DNA of 62,500 nucleotides, counting the filler, from Malassezia furfur (Eukaryota), in NCBI GenBank assembly GCA_052055015.1. It is 4 parts of 4 records of this genome, joined end to end, with 100 filler letters (N's around TTAATTAATTAA, not from the genome) between each part and the next. Parts side by side here need not be neighbours in the genome. Positions count along the whole stretch, not along the records: positions 1 to 15,574 come from JBQJIT010000267.1; 3 more parts are not named here. The stretch is one strand, 5' to 3'. The notes under the pieces were generated by a model. The model was not told the DNA's origin. It saw only the letters and a program-made list of their open reading frames with translations, and made no database searches. Position numbers and translations under genes: made by a program. Position 1 is the stretch's first letter; every line of letters starts with the position of its first letter. Of the stretch, positions 1-44,423 are shown one piece after another.

Positions 1-405
1 GCGGCGGCGCCGTCCGTTCCGCCGCCGCGTCGCGACTTTGACACGCTCGTTCGCGAGGAACTCGCACTGCAGGCCGCGGCCATCCCGCCCGCCGACGTGC
101 CCTCGTGCCTCACGCTCTTCGACAAGTGGCTTGCGTGCTATGCCATCGGCGTCCAGTTCAAAAATGCGTACCGCTACGGCGAGATCGCCAACTGCACATC
201 GCGCAAGGAGGACTTCAAGTTCTGCCTCACGCTCCGCAGCCTCGACCCGGAGGCGCGCAGGCACGCCTACCTGCTCCGCCGCGCCGAGCAAATGGCACAC
301 CGCCGCAGGGGCTTCCGCACGAGCGAGGCAGTCTGGGAGATGCGCCGCGAGCCGCTCCTGGACCCCGACTTTGTCGATCCAGCGTACCCCGTGCCGTCGA
401 CCTAG
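1..405 (+). CDS. EMI1: Emi1/DUF3128-like small Cys-motif protein (5'-truncated)
   Basis: Frame open from base 1 to TAG 403-405; motif SCxxxFDxWxxCYxIGxQFKNxYRYGExxxCxxxxEDFKFC...SExVWExR. Confidence 0.75.
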   Translation, partial: AAAPSVPPPRRDFDTLVREELALQAAAIPPADVPSCLTLFDKWLACYAIGVQFKNAYRYGEIANCTSRKEDFKFCLTLRSLDPEARRHAYLLRRAEQMAHRRRGFRTSEAVWEMRREPLLDPDFVDPAYPVPST

Positions 406-444
406 GTACGTCGCCCATCCACACACACGAGCGGCCAGCGGCGC

Positions 445-536
445 TGCGGAGGATTTGCCTTTTTTTACAGTTCTGCTTCCGAAGTGGAGGATCCCTTGCG
501 GACAACCTAATACCAAGCTTACCATTGAATGACGCA
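445..536 (+). ncRNA. snR61: Box C/D snoRNA, snR61-like (25S Am1133-equivalent guide), in 3'UTR intron 406-590
   Basis: Guide CAGTTCTGCTT (468-478) + D' CCGA is complementary to conserved LSU AAGCAGAACUG; C-like CGGAGGA 447-453; D-like ATGA 529-532; perfect 13-bp flanking stem 422-434/549-561; intron GTACGT...GCTAAC...CAG. Confidence 0.8.
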
Positions 537-617
537 CATCCGCCGCGCCCGCTCGTGTGTGCTCGCACTGAGCATTGGCTAACCACACAGATACCCACCC
601 AACAGGTACGCATCCTT

Positions 618-776
618 GCAGCCGCGTCCGGGATTAGAACAAGTACATCCATTCTTTGAGAAGGGCCGCGCGCCGACGCAAGGGCCCGTGGCGAGGTCAT
701 GCTCTGCTGCGCTTTGCGAACGCGCGTGGCGATCCTTCGACGATTCGTTAATCTTCTCGATGAACTTCGCGGCTGC
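618..776 (+). ncRNA. Box C/D snoRNA, mgU6-47/SNORD7/Z30-like (U6 snRNA 2'-O-methyl guide), in intron 606-804
   Basis: GTTAATCTTCTC (747-758) pairs with 12 nt of U6 GAGAAGAUUAGC, and the D-5 base faces the A47-equivalent; D ATGA 760-763 with C-like GGGATTA 630-636; 9-bp terminal stem 618-626/768-776. Confidence 0.7.
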
Positions 777-832
777 TCTGCGCAAGAACAGACTAACACG
801 GCAGTTTCTTCCTGTGAGTATTTCTCCCAATT

Positions 833-946
833 GGATCCTGGGATGATTCTATACCATAGAACAAGCATGGCGAGCTATGTGCTGTGAGCCGCGCTTACAA
901 CATGCATGTACGTCGACGCGCGCACTGACCCAGCACCAACTGATCC
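833..946 (+). ncRNA. snR55: Box C/D snoRNA, snR55-like (18S Um1269-equivalent guide), in intron 814-977, interrupted by nested intron 908-933
   Basis: C box GGGATGA 840-846, D box CTGA 940-943; removing 908-933 gives CATGCATCACCAA-CTGA, complementary to 18S UGGUGGUGCAUG. Confidence 0.75.
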
Positions 947-998
947 CTCCCTGCTCCCAAGGACATGCTAATCACAGATACCCTACGTCGTCCTATAG

Positions 999-1817
999 CT
1001 ACCGACGCTCAATCGACAAATTGTCCATACTTGCTTGCAGCGCATCGACCGCATCGTCCGAGCGGGAGGGCGAGACCGTCTGCGACGCATCGCCAGACGC
1101 CTTGACATCGTTCGTCGGTTTTGCATCGCCAGCTGCTTGGGTGTCGTCGGCCGTCTTGTTCCCTTTCGGCGACAATGCGGCTTTTTCGACAGGACGCTCG
1201 TGCGTAGGCACCGATGCAGCACTCTGCGTCCGTTTGGATGTAGCTGCACTGGCCTTGCTCGGCTGGGTATCCGGAACGAGCTTCGGCTCGGTCGTTATGG
1301 CCGGTTTCGTGGCCGGGCGCGCTGACACCCTGGGTTGCTCTGTTGGTTTTGGCGAGGCGCGCGCCGACGCAAGACGCTCGTTGCGCACACGCCCCTCGTT
1401 GGTCTCCTGCCCCGAACGGGACTCGGCTGGCACCACCTTCTTCCACGTCGACACTTGATCAGCACGCGCCATCGACCCTTTGGGCGCACGGACCTTGCGT
1501 CTTGCCTGCGACGGACTCCCACTACCTTGACTCTCGTTCATACGCACGAGGTCTGCCAGGCTCCGTCCCCCTGGGGAGCGAGGCGATCGTGCATCGCCGT
1601 CGCGCTGCGCGACATGGCGAGGCCGGAATCGCTGTATGTCTTCGGCCGGCGTGAATCCTGGGCGCACTTTCCGCTCCTTGCGCACACTTCATCAGCACAT
1701 CACATACGATCCATCAGCCCGTACACTTGCGGGAATGACGCGCGCGTCTTCGGCTCCGCCAACGATCCCTGACGGCGCGGCGCGCGACGTCCTCGGCGTC
1801 GCAGGCGGCGACGGCAT
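999..1817 (-). CDS. PYM1: PYM/WIBG (partner of Y14-Mago) protein; 21-nt intron 1687-1707
   Basis: Spliced IPASVRADGS|VRKERKVRPGFTPxED Mago-binding motif; unspliced frame hits TGA. Confidence 0.85.
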
Positions 1818-1909: not shown

Positions 1910-2529
1910 CTACTTCTTGATCGTGGTCACCTCGCGGCGGCCGCGGGGCAGGCGCGGCTTGGGCACGCGCTGGCGGCCCTGCTGCGACTTGATGATGTGG
2001 GTAGCGCGGGCAACAGCGTCTGCAGGGTTAGTAAACTGAACGACAAGCACAGGTCCCGGCGCGCAGCACAAGCTGCACACCTCCATGGAGGCTTGTCTGA
2101 CATTGTTGTAGCACCACAAATACGCCCAACCCGTCATAGGACAGAGCCATCAGGGGGGTTCTAGCGTGGTGCGCCGGGACCTTTTAAATACGTACCCTTC
2201 CGGAGGTCGGGGCGGTAGCCGTGCTTGGCCGCGATGTTCGCGACGGCACCAGCCACGCGGCGCGAGCCGCCCTTGACCGTGGTGGTGGCGCGCGCGCCCT
2301 TGACGGCAAACGGCGACACCTTGGTCTTCTTGGTGGTGACATCCACACCCTTCTTCTCGTTGGGGACGATGCCGACCGACTTGTCGTTCACAAGACCAGA
2401 GTACTTGTAGCTGTGCAGCGAAGCCAGGTTACCGGGCTCGCGCGAGAACACGCGGCCGAGGCCCTTCTGCTTCACGAGGTAGCTGTTCGACTTGCGGACA
2501 AGGAGCCACTGGAGATCCTGCGTCGACAT
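1910..2529 (-). CDS. RPL28: 60S ribosomal protein eL28; intron 2020-2195
   Basis: MSTQDLQWLLVRKSNSYLVK...FSREPGNL...SYKYSGL...YRPDLRK|DAVARA. Confidence 0.92.
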
Positions 2530-2644
2530 CACGGTAGGTCGGTGGGTGCAAGTAGCGCGCGCCGCTCGGTTTGCAGAACTGCAATCCGCACGTGATGAGA
2601 TGTGCCACGTGGAGGTGCGGTGGATGGCCCATGCCCCTACCGTT

Positions 2645-3261
2645 ATGGCATCCGCGCCGAGTGTGGAGAGGAACGCGCGGGGCATCCCGACCGCGCCGTT
2701 CGTCGTACGTGTGCGCTGCTTACCCAGGACGATGTCGTCAAGTATCTCGGGAACGAAGATGAAGACGTGATGCCTACGCTCCAAAAGTTCCAGGAGGCCA
2801 TTAGCAAGTACAAATTCATGGAGATGAGCACTGCGCAGCGCCGCCAGGGCCTCGAGCAAAAGATCCCGGATATCACCAACACGCTCAAGATGGTTGAGTA
2901 CTTGAAAAAGCACAAGGTTTGTGGAATGCACTAACGCAGAACGACCCGGAACCGGTAGAGACGACGTTTGAGCTGAACGACACGCTGTACGCGCGCGCGA
3001 AACTCGACCCTATCGATCGCGTGCACCTCTGGCTGGGTGTACGTAATGGAACTCACACAGGCAAATGTCATGCTTTCCTACGATATTGACGAGGCTATTG
3101 ACCTTCTACGGGAAAAGCTGTCGAATGCCAAGGCCAACATGGCCGCAGCAAACGAGGACCTCGGCTTTTTGCGCGATCAAATTACTACGATGGAAGTGAA
3201 TACCGCCCGTGTGCATAACTGGGATGTCAAGCGGCGGCGCGATCGGTACGTGCATCCCTAA
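2645..3261 (+). CDS. PAC10: Prefoldin subunit 3 (Pac10/Gim2/VBP1); introns 2705-2727, 2917-2939, 3039-3060
   Basis: NARGIPTAPFV, FQEAISKYKFME, FELNDTLYARA, LWLG|ANVMLSY, TTMEVNTARVHNWDV. Confidence 0.92.
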
Positions 3262-10427: not shown

Positions 10428-10822
10428 TTGGTATAGCACATAACCTAACCAATAACAATAACTCATTTTAGTGTATACTCATGGACGAGTCGATGATTTG
10501 CTTAGTGGTTTTGACCTTTCTTAATGAATAATATCAACGCTCTTTACTAGGCTGCCGACTACTATCAAAACTTGTAACTTTCCCTTATTTCTAGTCGAAG
10601 GTTTTGATCACAATAACTTGTACTACAGGATTTTAAGCGAGTAAGTCACACTGGACACGACGATGTAAACAAAGAAGCAAGTTTTGCGCGCGCGATGTAA
10701 TAATTCAGTAACTGTCTTCTATCAAAAATTGAATGTTCCTGTGATTTGGAGCCTTAGTTTAGCTGCGAACCTCTTGGTACGCATCGTTTACGGCTCGAGT
10801 TCCTGTATTCTTGACAGGGAAT

Positions 10823-10975
10823 TTAGGCGATAACACAGTAGAAAACGCCGTTGGGGAGGCCAGTGCCATCATCATACTCCTGGTTCACAGGTACCTTGAT
10901 TTCAGTGTCCTTGGCATAGCTAGTAGGCACAACAGAGGTGGCCTGGGCGGTGAAGACTTCCTGAACAGTGTCCAT
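10823..10975 (-). CDS. mfa: Mating lipopeptide pheromone precursor, 50 aa (absent from ORF track)
   Basis: MDTVQEVFTAQATSVVPTSYAKDTEIKVPVNQEYDDGTGLPNGVFYCVIA*; C-terminal CAAX; divergent from an STE3 receptor; TATA-like element at ~11033-11040. Confidence 0.92.
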   Translation of the reverse strand: MDTVQEVFTAQATSVVPTSYAKDTEIKVPVNQEYDDGTGLPNGVFYCVIA

Positions 10976-11104
10976 GATTGATAAAGTTGGTTGAAGTTGT
11001 TGTTGAGAAATGCTAAGTGCAATCCGGTACCATTATATATGTTTCAACTTCGTATCATAATACTTCGTAGCAGCATTACAGCTGTCAAAGAATGATTTAG
11101 ACCT

Positions 11105-11388
11105 CTTTGTCTATCTGTTACCTTTGTGCATTTAGAATGGATATCAGAAGCGACTTTCAATATCCGTGCGCGAGTGGGACCTCCACATTGAACCATCAAC
11201 AAAGAAATTAAAAGCTTCTAATTCAAATTAGTACGGCCAACATGCTTTGATTTTTTTTGTGACAAAGACTTTGTGGTGTCCAAACAAAGGAGTGATCAAC
11301 GAACACAAAGCGAAATTGGAAAGTAACACTTTTAATGATAAATTCTTCTTTGTGTTGACCAATCTTATGCCTTCGATTAAGTCTTTGT
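11105..11388. promoter_or_regulatory. Cluster of HMG-box (Prf1/Ste11-type) pheromone-response-like elements
   Basis: Nine ACAAAG/CTTTGT hexamers at 11105, 11122, 11199, 11262, 11269, 11284, 11305, 11348, 11383 in the mfa-pra intergenic region. Confidence 0.7.
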
Positions 11389-11495
11389 TTCACAGAATCA
11401 ACCGACAATCCTGTCAGATCTAAGATCTGTTCAACTTCTGTACTAGTGATATACATGAATTGTTCACAGGATGCGAGAAAGTCAGACTGGCAAAA

Positions 11496-12707
11496 ATGTT
11501 GAGTTCTACATTAGCTTTCATATTCTTCGCATTCATATCCGTTCCAGCACTTCTGGTGTCACTTCCTTTTCATCTCAAAGCACAGAATGCTGGGACGACT
11601 CTGATCATATGCTGGACGAGCCTCGGAAACTTTGTCGAGGCAATTTCTGCAATTGTCATGTTGAATGCTAATGACGTGAAAGCGGTTGGATGGTGCGACT
11701 TTGCGGGCGCCATAAGGTATACATGGGGTACGGGCTGTTGTATGGGTGGCCTGTTGCTGCTCCGTCGATTGGCCATTATTGCTTCAAAGCAAACTGCATT
11801 CAAAGACGAGAGAGAGAAGAGAAGAGTATTTGCAATTGAAATTGCAATTGGCATTACCATCCCTTTACTTGAAATCTTGTTTCATTTTATTGTGCAAGGT
11901 CATCGCATGGATGAGTTTCAAGATTTTGGGTGCATGGCACCAATATACCCTTCGGTTGCGACCATTTTTCTGGTTATGCTTTATCCTATTGTCATCACGA
12001 TCATTTCAGCTTTATATGGAAGTGAGTACTTATCGGCTAAATTCTAGTTCTTGCCGTACGCTCTTTGACCGTGCGGAGAAAAGAGTTCTATCACATGCTC
12101 AGTTATGAGGATACGGGAATTTCCCGTTCTCATTATTTACGTTTGATGGCACTTGGACTTATTGACATTATCTTGTGGCTCCCGCTCTCACTAACCTTCC
12201 TCATCTTGGATCTTTCCAACATGAAAATTCAATCTTACCAGAGCTGGTCCCATGTCCACATTGATTTCAACCGCGTCGAATTCGTTCCTATTGACACATT
12301 TGTTCATGGAAACTACAGTGTGTATGTTGCCGCTGAGCTCGGTCGCTGGATTGGACCTACACTGGCTCTAAATTTCTTTATTTTCTTCGGGGTCAAATCA
12401 GAAGTTTGGGCTTCCTATTGGAGTCGTTTCATTAAGTTCAGAAACATTGTATGCCAATGGGGGAGAACGAAGATCCCAGCACAAAACGACTCAGATGCTG
12501 ATATATTTGACGATGTTGAAGACAAAACAACCCCGATGTATGTTATCTAAATCGATGGGATGGCTTACTGACTTTAGTGTGCAATCGCAATTTGGAACTG
12601 AACGAACATTTACGACTTCCAGGAATTCGCTTCCCAACTCGCTTGGTAACAGTCTCCCCGACATCGATATTGAGAAAGCAGAACACATGGATATCTACTC
12701 GACGTAG
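11496..12707 (+). CDS. pra: STE3-type pheromone receptor (7TM); introns 12022-12047, 12538-12577
   Basis: PFHLKAQN, WCD, IVQGHR, GC-P, YLRLMAL, SWSHVH, FFIFFG motifs. Confidence 0.93.
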
Positions 12708-13206
12708 CGTGGATAGATGTCTGATTATATCGATCTTAAAAATGGCACTTACTCAACTAGCTGAGTTTACAACATGTTACTATTTGCATTACCAAATGTA
12801 TGACGAATAAGCGTGTGAATGGAACGTCCTAACGAGTTCATTCACGATAAAATTGTCAATGCATTCGTATTGGCAAAACATATTGACCCTCAACATCCAT
12901 CTGCCTGCGATTCTAGCAAGCTAGAAGAGGCAGGATGAGAGAGCTTCGATAGTGCCGTGCTAACATGTCCTGACACATAGACGATGCAAGTGCATTACAC
13001 CATCCACGCAACCCTGTTCCTGACATAAACGCACATGTATCTCTGCTAGGTCAACAGATGATAATCCATTGCGAATACGAGCGTCAGTATCCGTCTACAT
13101 GGTAAGATGTCAAAAGCGAAGTGCGTGGGCGCGCGAAAATCGGACCTTCGATTTTAGTCAGCACAACCAGATTTTCGTGTCGCAGCCGCCGTGTGCATCC
13201 AGAAGC

Positions 13207-44319: not shown

Positions 44320-44423
44320 GGCTGAGTGGCGCAACGGTAGCGCGTCTGATTCCAGCATGTTGGAATACAATGTCCTGCAGGGGAGTCTCCAGAAGGTTAT
44401 CCGTTCGAATCGGGTCTCGGTCA
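44320..44423 (+). tRNA. tRNA-Trp(CCA) with intron ~44356-44387
   Basis: Acceptor GGCTGAG/CTCGGTC, D stem GCGC/GCGC, anticodon CCA 44352-44354, T arm ATCCG-TTCGAAT-CGGGT, T7 Pol III terminator. Confidence 0.88.

Follow-up and report, generated by a model that had tools for sequence, protein, structure and literature searches.

Introduction

In Saccharomyces cerevisiae, the small nucleolar RNAs (snoRNAs) snR61, snR55 and snR57 are encoded in one polycistronic unit, which is non-intronic and processed by nucleases. The present analysis concerns a cassette of three candidate box C/D snoRNAs, located directly behind the coding sequence of a PANTS/EMI1-like gene of Malassezia furfur (assembly GCA_052055015.1), in a stretch of 62,500 nucleotides made of four joined parts and called the window below. 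Malassezia is a common skin commensal, for which public RNA-seq data exist. The cassette shares with the yeast unit the linkage of snR61 and snR55, and would differ from it in being intronic, in having a U6 guide in the middle and in having a protein-coding host. We propose that the EMI1-like gene doubles as a snoRNA host, with three consecutive introns behind its stop codon carrying one box C/D snoRNA each, and we give this reading, drawn from sequence comparison, a probability of roughly three in four.

Intronic clusters of box C/D snoRNAs are described in Neurospora crassa, with one snoRNA per intron, in consecutive introns separated by short exons (Liu et al., 2009, PMC2780460; here and below, statements on N. 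crassa refer to excerpts of this article). Chromosome IV carries the homologues of snR61 (CD38) and snR55 (CD34), each of them in an intron. Clusters I–V lie in UHG-like non-coding hosts with open reading frames (ORFs) of 159–267 bp. The Malassezia cassette shows the same arrangement of one snoRNA per consecutive intron with short exons in between. In contrast to clusters I–V, as these excerpts present them, its snoRNAs would be hosted by the tail of a conserved protein-coding gene, with an intron 1 that adjoins or divides the stop codon and with exons of 3–15 nt.

Introns interrupting snoRNA genes, and introns nested in other introns, also have described counterparts. The U3 snoRNA genes of yeast and N. 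crassa carry spliceosomal introns (PMC2780460), so that splicing is needed for the mature RNA, as it would be for the third RNA of the cassette. U3 genes are nevertheless independent genes and U3 is no modification guide, whereas the third RNA is a candidate methylation guide lying within an intron and having its antisense element broken. For the basidiomycete Cryptococcus neoformans, the excerpted text of Burke et al. (bioRxiv 10.1101/224170) reports 13 cases of nested splicing, as well as recursive splicing with zero-length exons. In such nested splicing, as in the stwintrons of filamentous fungi, a small intron leaves a larger one by consecutive reactions, which is also what we propose here; but the inner intron of a stwintron breaks a splice signal of the outer one, whereas here it breaks a functional RNA that the outer intron would carry. 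Intronic snoRNA clusters, introns in U3 genes and nested introns in fungi are therefore, each taken separately, already known.

Sequences Compared

Four lineages are compared, namely the window and the metagenome loci L001, L002 and L005. A scan of metagenome contigs with an EMI1 alignment gave five loci (L001 to L005), of which L002, L003 and L004 are identical in sequence, leaving three further lineages with 67–70% EMI1 protein identity. The EMI1 tree is built from 156 columns of this single small gene. Complements of the guides were sought in 58 eukaryotic ribosomal DNA (rDNA) contaminant loci (76 kb), obtained by scanning genome contigs with the ITS4 primer. These loci cover the 18S, the 5.8S, the internal transcribed spacers (ITS) and the first 2.2 kb of the large subunit (LSU), the last third of the LSU lying outside; a search for this 3′ third with an LSU primer in viral contigs gave no match. 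The pairing partner used for U6 is the human U6 printed in PMC12467241 and not that of Malassezia. The window is GC-rich (about 0.6), and scanning the whole of it against Rfam at E up to 1 returns, besides the cassette, only a tRNA and a chance match to isrG.

Putative Intron-Exon Layout Behind the EMI1-like Coding Sequence

The 3′ part of the PANTS/EMI1-like coding sequence occupies positions 1–405 on the plus strand; it is open at the window start and ends with the stop codon TAG at 403–405. Its translation matches the Pfam family PF11326 (PANTS-like) with an E-value of 1.8e-23. Its Malassezia homologues, which the sources name ‘Early meiotic induction protein 1’, show 58–94% identity, with 81% for M. 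yamatoensis, 76% for M. psittaci and 74% for M. japonica. Behind the stop codon, three putative introns follow on the same strand. Intron 1 (406–590) begins with GTACGT at 406, has CTAAC at 579 and a CAG ending at 590, these signals being also found in L001, L002 and L005, and hosts the snR61-like RNA (RNA 1). After micro-exon 2 (591–605, 15 nt; AATG or ATG in the relatives) comes intron 2 (606–804), hosting the candidate U6 guide (RNA 2), with GTACGC at 606, a 5′ splice site invariant in all four lineages, CTAAC at 793 and a CAG ending at 804. Micro-exon 3 (805–813, 9 nt) separates it from the outer intron 3 (814–977), which hosts the snR55-like RNA (RNA 3) and has GTGAGT at 814, CTAAT at 968 and a CAG ending at 977, again in the four lineages. 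The last exon, part of the 3′ untranslated region (UTR), starts at 978 and, within 978–1001, reaches into the end of a convergent gene.

The same three units follow EMI1 in identical order in the four lineages. In a motif search, each unit of each lineage shows the complete set of splice signals (5′ splice site, branch site, 3′ splice site), and the snoRNA is always located between the first of these and the other two. In a four-way alignment, 55–85% of the columns of the RNA cores are invariant, compared to 6–16% of those of the spacers. It is this conservation in four lineages, and not the splice signals alone, that places the cassette above chance. An earlier interpretation made from the sequence alone (hereafter, the sequence-only reading) had delimited these three introns and the two exons between them, and its coordinates are exact.

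Two features of this region are recorded separately. The hexamer ATACCC opens both micro-exon 2 (591–596) and the last exon (978–983) of the window, and is also found in L002 (4866–4871) and L005 (4845–4850), slightly downstream of the start of the last exon. In addition, GTGTGT at 555 could start an intron of 36 nt, ending at 590 and sharing the branch and 3′ splice sites of intron 1; its use would leave RNA 1 exonic, and no GTGTGT is aligned with it in L001, L002 or L005.

Predicted Assembly of the Stop Codon

The position of intron 1 relative to the stop codon links the cassette with the transcript of EMI1. The coding exon of L001 and L005 ends with T|GTACGT and the next exon starts with AATG, so that removal of intron 1 gives the stop codon T|AA; in L002, the exon ends with TG|GTACGT and the next one starts with ATG, giving TG|A. 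In the three lineages, the spliced stop falls exactly at the conserved end of the EMI1 protein (...YPxPx), while the unspliced ORFs continue into unrelated, non-conserved tails. As their stop codon arises only when intron 1 is removed, the introns of the cassette should belong to the EMI1 transcript. We infer from this assembly of the stop codon, which is the strongest argument not based on RNA, that the introns are part of the EMI1 mRNA, in agreement with the sequence-only reading, for which the host appeared to be an mRNA tail. In the clade of the window, the stop codon is complete just ahead of the 5′ splice site, and every intron there is consequently a 3′-UTR intron.

The snoRNAs could alternatively belong to a separate, UHG-like non-coding host gene, starting inside or just after the EMI1 ORF, with an EMI1 mRNA ending before them. 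Such hosts, with their short ORFs, are those of clusters I–V in the N. crassa excerpts (PMC2780460), and gene overlaps occur in the compact genome of Malassezia, where the stop of the convergent gene is only 22 nt from the cassette. Against this, the stop codon is directly followed by the first 5′ splice site in the window and contains it in L001, L002 and L005, whose ORFs would, without splicing, extend into tails that are not conserved; moreover, the stop codon and RNA 1 are just 39 nt apart. We therefore consider a separate host gene improbable.

The distance of the junctions from the stop codon is of interest with regard to nonsense-mediated decay (NMD). In human, the NMD rule concerns 3′-UTR introns more than 50 nt from the stop codon, and snoRNA host genes are NMD targets, according to the excerpts used of Colombo et al. 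(2017, PMC5238794). In these human host genes, snoRNA introns lie downstream of the stop codon, as they do here. The sequence-only reading had suggested that all junctions stay within the approximately 50 nt that avoid NMD. This holds for the window (0, 15 and 24 nt) and for the last junction of L002 (16 nt) and L005 (5 nt), but not for L001, in which exon 3 measures 61 nt and the last junction is 63 nt from the stop. The same reading had also suggested, as a possible origin of the cassette, that a snoRNA host gene was fused to an mRNA as the genome became compact; the lineages compared here are all from Malassezia.

The predicted splicing of the cassette also has a bearing on public annotations. 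The ORF calls P0009, P0011, P0014, P0015, P0016, P0025 and P0026 run through the snoRNA introns, giving EMI1 spurious C-terminal tails or creating antisense ORFs over the convergent, PYM-like gene. In P0011 and P0014–P0016, which come from public protein sets, the read-through tail translates the snR61-like guide as ..(S/L)FQFCFR... Likewise, the NCBI models of M. yamatoensis, M. psittaci and M. nana end with short C-terminal tails that differ from each other. These read-through calls and tails are probably annotation artefacts. When the cassette itself is read as protein-coding, its five overlapping ORFs, on both strands, match no Pfam family at E up to 0.1.

The snR61-like RNA and Box Chemistry

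RNA 1 (445–536, plus strand) is delimited by a stem (445–448/533–536) and has a C box AGGAUUU (450–456) and a D box AUGA (529–532). Its interior contains a D′ guide (468–478), a D′ box CCGA (479–482) and a conserved accessory element (510–523). The family RF00476 (snR61/Z1/Z11) matches it in the four lineages, with 29 bits (E 0.19) in the window, 29.9 in L005, 26.6 in L002 and 26 in L001, all under the gathering threshold of 45 bits. Overall, 62% of its columns are invariant, and a flanking duplex is present in each lineage.

The D′ guide is identical to the family consensus CAGUUCUGCUUC, and the downstream consensus element UACCAAA is also present. The guide pairs over 11 bp with AAGCAGAACTG of the LSU rDNA in 10 loci, and the surrounding context TTTTTGGTAAGCAGAACTG is likewise found in 10 loci, the target being 1073–1250 nt downstream of the LSU 5′ motif (1073–1104 nt in nine of the ten). 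By the fifth-position rule, the predicted target is the A in LSU AAGCA*GAACUG, which fits the site 26S-Am1114 given for the N. crassa homologue CD38 (PMC2780460, excerpt). Just upstream of the target, TTTTTGGTA is complementary to the UACCAA of the 510–523 element, suggesting that this element may establish an accessory pairing beside the target. Other matches to rDNA were considered and dismissed as chance: a 12-bp match of positions 518–529 to the 18S, which is not conserved in the other lineages, and matches to the antisense strand and to the ITS.

The boxes of the three RNAs are of two kinds. RNA 1 and RNA 2 have AGGAUUx and AUGA (GGGAUUA as the C box of RNA 2 in the window), and RNA 3 has GGGAUGA and CUGA. 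As read from the sequence, position 6 of the C box and position 1 of the D box form a U-A pair in RNA 1 and RNA 2 and a G-C pair in RNA 3, in all four lineages. The change from G to U in the C box is thus matched by one from C to A in the D box, which is the double change that a real K-turn predicts. A box C/D K-turn, as defined by tandem G.A pairs, a U.U pair and the Watson-Crick pair between these two positions, is predicted for all three RNAs. Each of them also has, upstream of a D or D′ box, a guide with a ribosomal or small nuclear RNA complement, for which at least 9–10 nt are expected: 11 bp in RNA 1, 9–12 bp in RNA 2 and 12 bp in RNA 3 once its guide is joined. The flanking stems that the sequence-only reading attributed to each RNA are found for RNA 1 and RNA 2, with duplexes of −6 to −24 kcal/mol in the four lineages, and hardly for RNA 3 (−3 to −8.5 kcal/mol).

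The Candidate U6 Guide

RNA 2 (618–776, plus strand) has an outer stem (618–626/768–776), a C box GGGAUUA (630–636) and a D box AUGA (760–763). Between them are found a D′ guide (642–655), a D′ box UUGA (656–659), an internal hairpin (about 662–737) and a D guide (747–758, with a core at 750–758). The outer stem has 9 bp in the window, the other lineages having different but equivalent flanking helices, and seven pairs of the internal hairpin are changed on both sides.

The core of the D guide, AAUCUUCUC (9 nt), is invariant in the four lineages and is followed by one variable nucleotide and then by AUGA. It is complementary to GAGAAGAUUA of human U6 (PMC12467241): the nine invariant nucleotides pair with GAGAAGAUU (G44–U52), and the pairing reaches 12 nt in the window, continuing through AGC to C55. 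The fifth position before the D box corresponds to human A47, the last A of the ACAGAGA box of U6. A given 9-mer is roughly estimated to match somewhere in an RNA of 100 nt with a probability of about 3e-4, and at a known methylated site with a lower one. In Schizosaccharomyces pombe, snoZ30/mgU6-47 (SNORD7 in human) guides methylation of the equivalent of U6 Am47, which is A41 in that species, as stated in the excerpted source. This complementarity points to the A47 equivalent of U6 as the target of RNA 2, the same nucleotide as for mgU6-47/snoZ30, and the role of U6 guide that the sequence-only reading had assigned to the middle RNA is thereby given a predicted site.

RNA 2 is otherwise unlike mgU6-47/snoZ30: it measures about 159 nt, its boxes are non-canonical, and it contains a long internal hairpin as well as a further guide, which is an orphan. 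Its position as a D guide also differs from that in N. crassa, where the U6-Am47 guide occupies the D′ slot of the snR53 homologue (PMC2780460, excerpt). The D′ guide of RNA 2 and the adjoining UUGA (642–659, 18 nt) are invariant in the four lineages, and neither of the two guides has a ribosomal RNA complement in the 58 rDNA loci. The D′ guide is thus an orphan, whose target may be located in the rest of the LSU or in another RNA.

The snR55-like RNA and Its Putative Nested Mini-Intron

RNA 3 (836–946, plus strand) is in two pieces. It has a C box GGGAUGA (840–846) and a D box CUGA (940–943), and its guide is divided into 901–907 and 934–938 by a putative mini-intron of 26 nt (908–933, plus strand), which has GTACGT, the branch site ACTGAC and a final CAG. 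An insert is present at the same point in L002 (23 nt; GTACGT, GCTAAC, CAG) and in L001 (47 nt; GTACGT, ACTAAC, CAG), and is precisely lacking in L005. In the window, as in L001 and L002, this inner intron is entirely contained in the outer one (814–977) and has its own 5′ splice, branch and 3′ splice sites. It is not a stwintron in the strict sense, as it falls within the guide, where 88 nt separate it from the 5′ splice site of the outer intron and 34 nt from the outer branch site further downstream.

The family RF00472 (snR55/Z10) matches L005 alone, with 26.6 bits (E 0.022 in a scan of 481 nt), below its gathering threshold of 50 bits; the window, L001 and L002 remain unmatched, which is accounted for by the interruption of their guide. 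In L005, the guide CAUGCAUCACCA adjoining CUGA is identical to the RF00472 consensus, and when the two parts of the window guide are joined, the last 14 nt are equal to this uninterrupted guide. The joined guide pairs over 12 bp (including one G.U) with TGGTGGTGCATG of the 18S rDNA in seven loci, the pairing ending 1 nt before the D box; in the unspliced RNA, merely 6 nt of guide adjoin this box. The fifth position is the U in 18S UGGU*GGUGCAUG, and this predicted target fits 18S-Um1265, the site given for the N. crassa homologue CD34 (PMC2780460, excerpt).

The mini-intron has a size that is usual in this genome. In the window, 33 candidate introns of 19–32 nt are counted, compared to 8.5 in shuffled sequences, with a mode at 21–22 nt, and in M. 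sympodialis the curated mean intron length is 30 bp, 99% of introns being supported by RNA-seq (PMC5389616). The EMI1 tree groups L005 and L001 as sisters (support 97/96), the clades of the window and of L002 being outside; as a consequence, the absence of the mini-intron from L005 looks like the precise loss of an old intron.

The 26-nt insert might, alternatively, be a disabling one that is left unspliced, RNA 3 being then a decaying pseudogene and another copy doing the work. The lack of RF00472 matches in the window, L001 and L002 is what a pseudogene would give, and a second, intact copy of snR55 may exist at another place of the genome. However, in the three lineages with an insert, neither the guide halves (8 and 10 nt) nor the boxes have changed, despite the different lengths and sequences of these inserts, each of which keeps a GTACGT start, a branch site and a CAG end. 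The 3′ piece of RNA 3 is 85% invariant, as opposed to 12% for the insert. Two further relatives, represented by the read-through ORFs P0025 (94% identity) and P0026 (59%), keep the codons over the 5′ splice site and over the branch and 3′ splice sites, and in P0026 two interior codons of the mini-intron differ while the signal codons are kept. This pattern of constant signals around a variable interior makes a decaying RNA 3 unlikely, and argues instead for a guide that would be restored by splicing.

The sequence-only reading had missed this nested mini-intron. The CTGA at 925–928, considered as a D box of RNA 3, belongs in fact to the branch site of the mini-intron, the D box being at 940–943; it has no conserved ribosomal RNA complement upstream and is absent at that place from L002. 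The assignments of the first RNA to snR61 and of the third to snR55 are retained as likenesses, the former based on RF00476 scores in the four lineages, the latter on the RF00472 score of the one lineage that is free of the mini-intron. Functionally, the cassette would hold the counterparts of snR61, mgU6-47 and snR55, although none of the three RNAs reaches the Rfam threshold for family membership.

Proposed Order of Splicing and Weight of the Evidence

We infer the splicing events, the accumulation of the snoRNAs and the methylations from the conserved sequences. The introns would be removed singly and their lariats debranched, and exonucleases would trim them to the cores protected in the snoRNA-protein particles (snoRNPs). 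RNA 1 would then direct 2′-O-methylation of an A in the LSU rRNA, with its accessory element pairing beside the site; RNA 2, methylation of U6 at the final A of its ACAGAGA box, which is A47 in human and A41 in S. pombe; and RNA 3, methylation of a U in the 18S rRNA. In intron 3, the inner intron (908–933) would be spliced first, joining 907 to 934, as the branch site at 924–929 has its closest partner, located at the preferred distance, in the 5′ splice site of this intron. The outer 5′ splice site at 814 would then pair with the branch site at 968 and the 3′ splice site at 977, and a working RNA 3 would be released from the outer intron only after the inner splicing. The order matters, since splicing from 814 to 933 would destroy RNA 3.

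Several points weigh against the proposed reading. The Rfam scores of RNA 1 and, in L005, of RNA 3 lie under their gathering thresholds, and at E up to 10 Rfam matches no family, mgU6-47/snoZ30 homology included, to 606–804 or to its L005 counterpart. RNA 1 and RNA 2 depart from the canonical C (RUGAUGA) and D (CUGA) boxes. The U6 complement is conserved across lineages over only 9 nt and is compared with human U6 only, and RNA 3 is almost devoid of a terminal stem. As for splicing, candidate introns of 100–250 nt are about equally numerous in the window and in shuffled sequences, the branch site of intron 2 in L002 is the weaker CTCAC, and micro-exons of 3–4 nt crowd adjacent 3′ and 5′ splice sites in a way that may be sterically awkward. 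Lastly, the outer 5′ splice site at 814 could pair with the inner 3′ splice site at 933.

That the splice-like signals are unused, and that an endonuclease and exonucleases excise the snoRNAs from a read-through or polycistronic transcript as in yeast clusters, seems very improbable: the commonness of the 100–250-nt signal combination in shuffled sequences and the helices flanking RNA 1 and RNA 2, as possible cleavage sites, would suit it, but the signals recur at three units in four lineages while the spacers are so variable, three lineages need splicing to complete the stop codon, and the guide of RNA 3 is unobtainable without splicing.

Neighboring Features

The gene convergent with EMI1 is a PYM-like ORF (999–1685, minus strand) with a Mago-binding domain (PF09282, E 1e-4, 22.6 bits for a cut-off of 20.6). 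This domain is truncated at the start of the ORF, which makes an upstream exon likely. With the stop codon of this ORF (999–1001) placed 22 nt away from the final 3′ splice site of the cassette, the 3′ UTRs of both genes must overlap. Further on, the ORF at 2161–2931 (minus strand) shows a ribosomal protein L28e domain (PF01778, E 9.7e-27) that is confined to the C-terminal half of the ORF, and the gene probably has short introns upstream.

The positions 10500–13000 form an AT-rich trough of about 2.5 kb, with a GC content of 0.37–0.44 compared to 0.56–0.67 elsewhere in the window. As centromeres in Malassezia are short and AT-rich, extending over a few kb, this trough could be one of them. 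A tRNA is predicted by Rfam at 44320–44423 on the plus strand (44.8 bits, E 2.6e-6), while ARAGORN finds no tRNA in the whole window; its span of 104 nt makes it probably intron-containing. In the metagenome loci, weak matches to the archaeal C/D model sR28 upstream of EMI1 (L001 2350–2401, L002 2677–2728, L005 2756–2807) were rejected as snoRNAs, because the matched stretch varies at every third base, the third codon position, and is thus coding sequence.

Significance

Returning to the proposal of an EMI1-like gene that doubles as a snoRNA host, we consider it fairly probable that the antisense element of the snR55-like RNA is assembled by splicing. It would contain a mini-intron kept since early Malassezia and nested in a 3′-UTR intron, which would require ordered reactions; and the stop codon of the sister lineages would be built by the first splicing event, across micro-exons of 3–4 nt. 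One possibility is that the locus could couple the performance of the spliceosome to the modification of rRNA and U6. Such a coupling is conceivable because the same transcript carries the guide for a nucleotide in the catalytic center of U6.

Three features appear unusual: snoRNA introns that start directly at a protein-coding gene's stop codon or within it, internal exons of only 3–15 nt, and the guide of an intron-encoded snoRNA interrupted by a spliceosomal intron. For the last, a literature search that covered only a minority of subscription journals found no report. If the proposal is true, the locus would be a natural example of a functional RNA whose production depends on the order of splicing, and a test bed for the choice of partners by spliceosomes that deal with ultra-short introns. 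It would also be a warning for annotation, as public protein sets translate the snoRNAs of Malassezia as C-terminal tails of EMI1.

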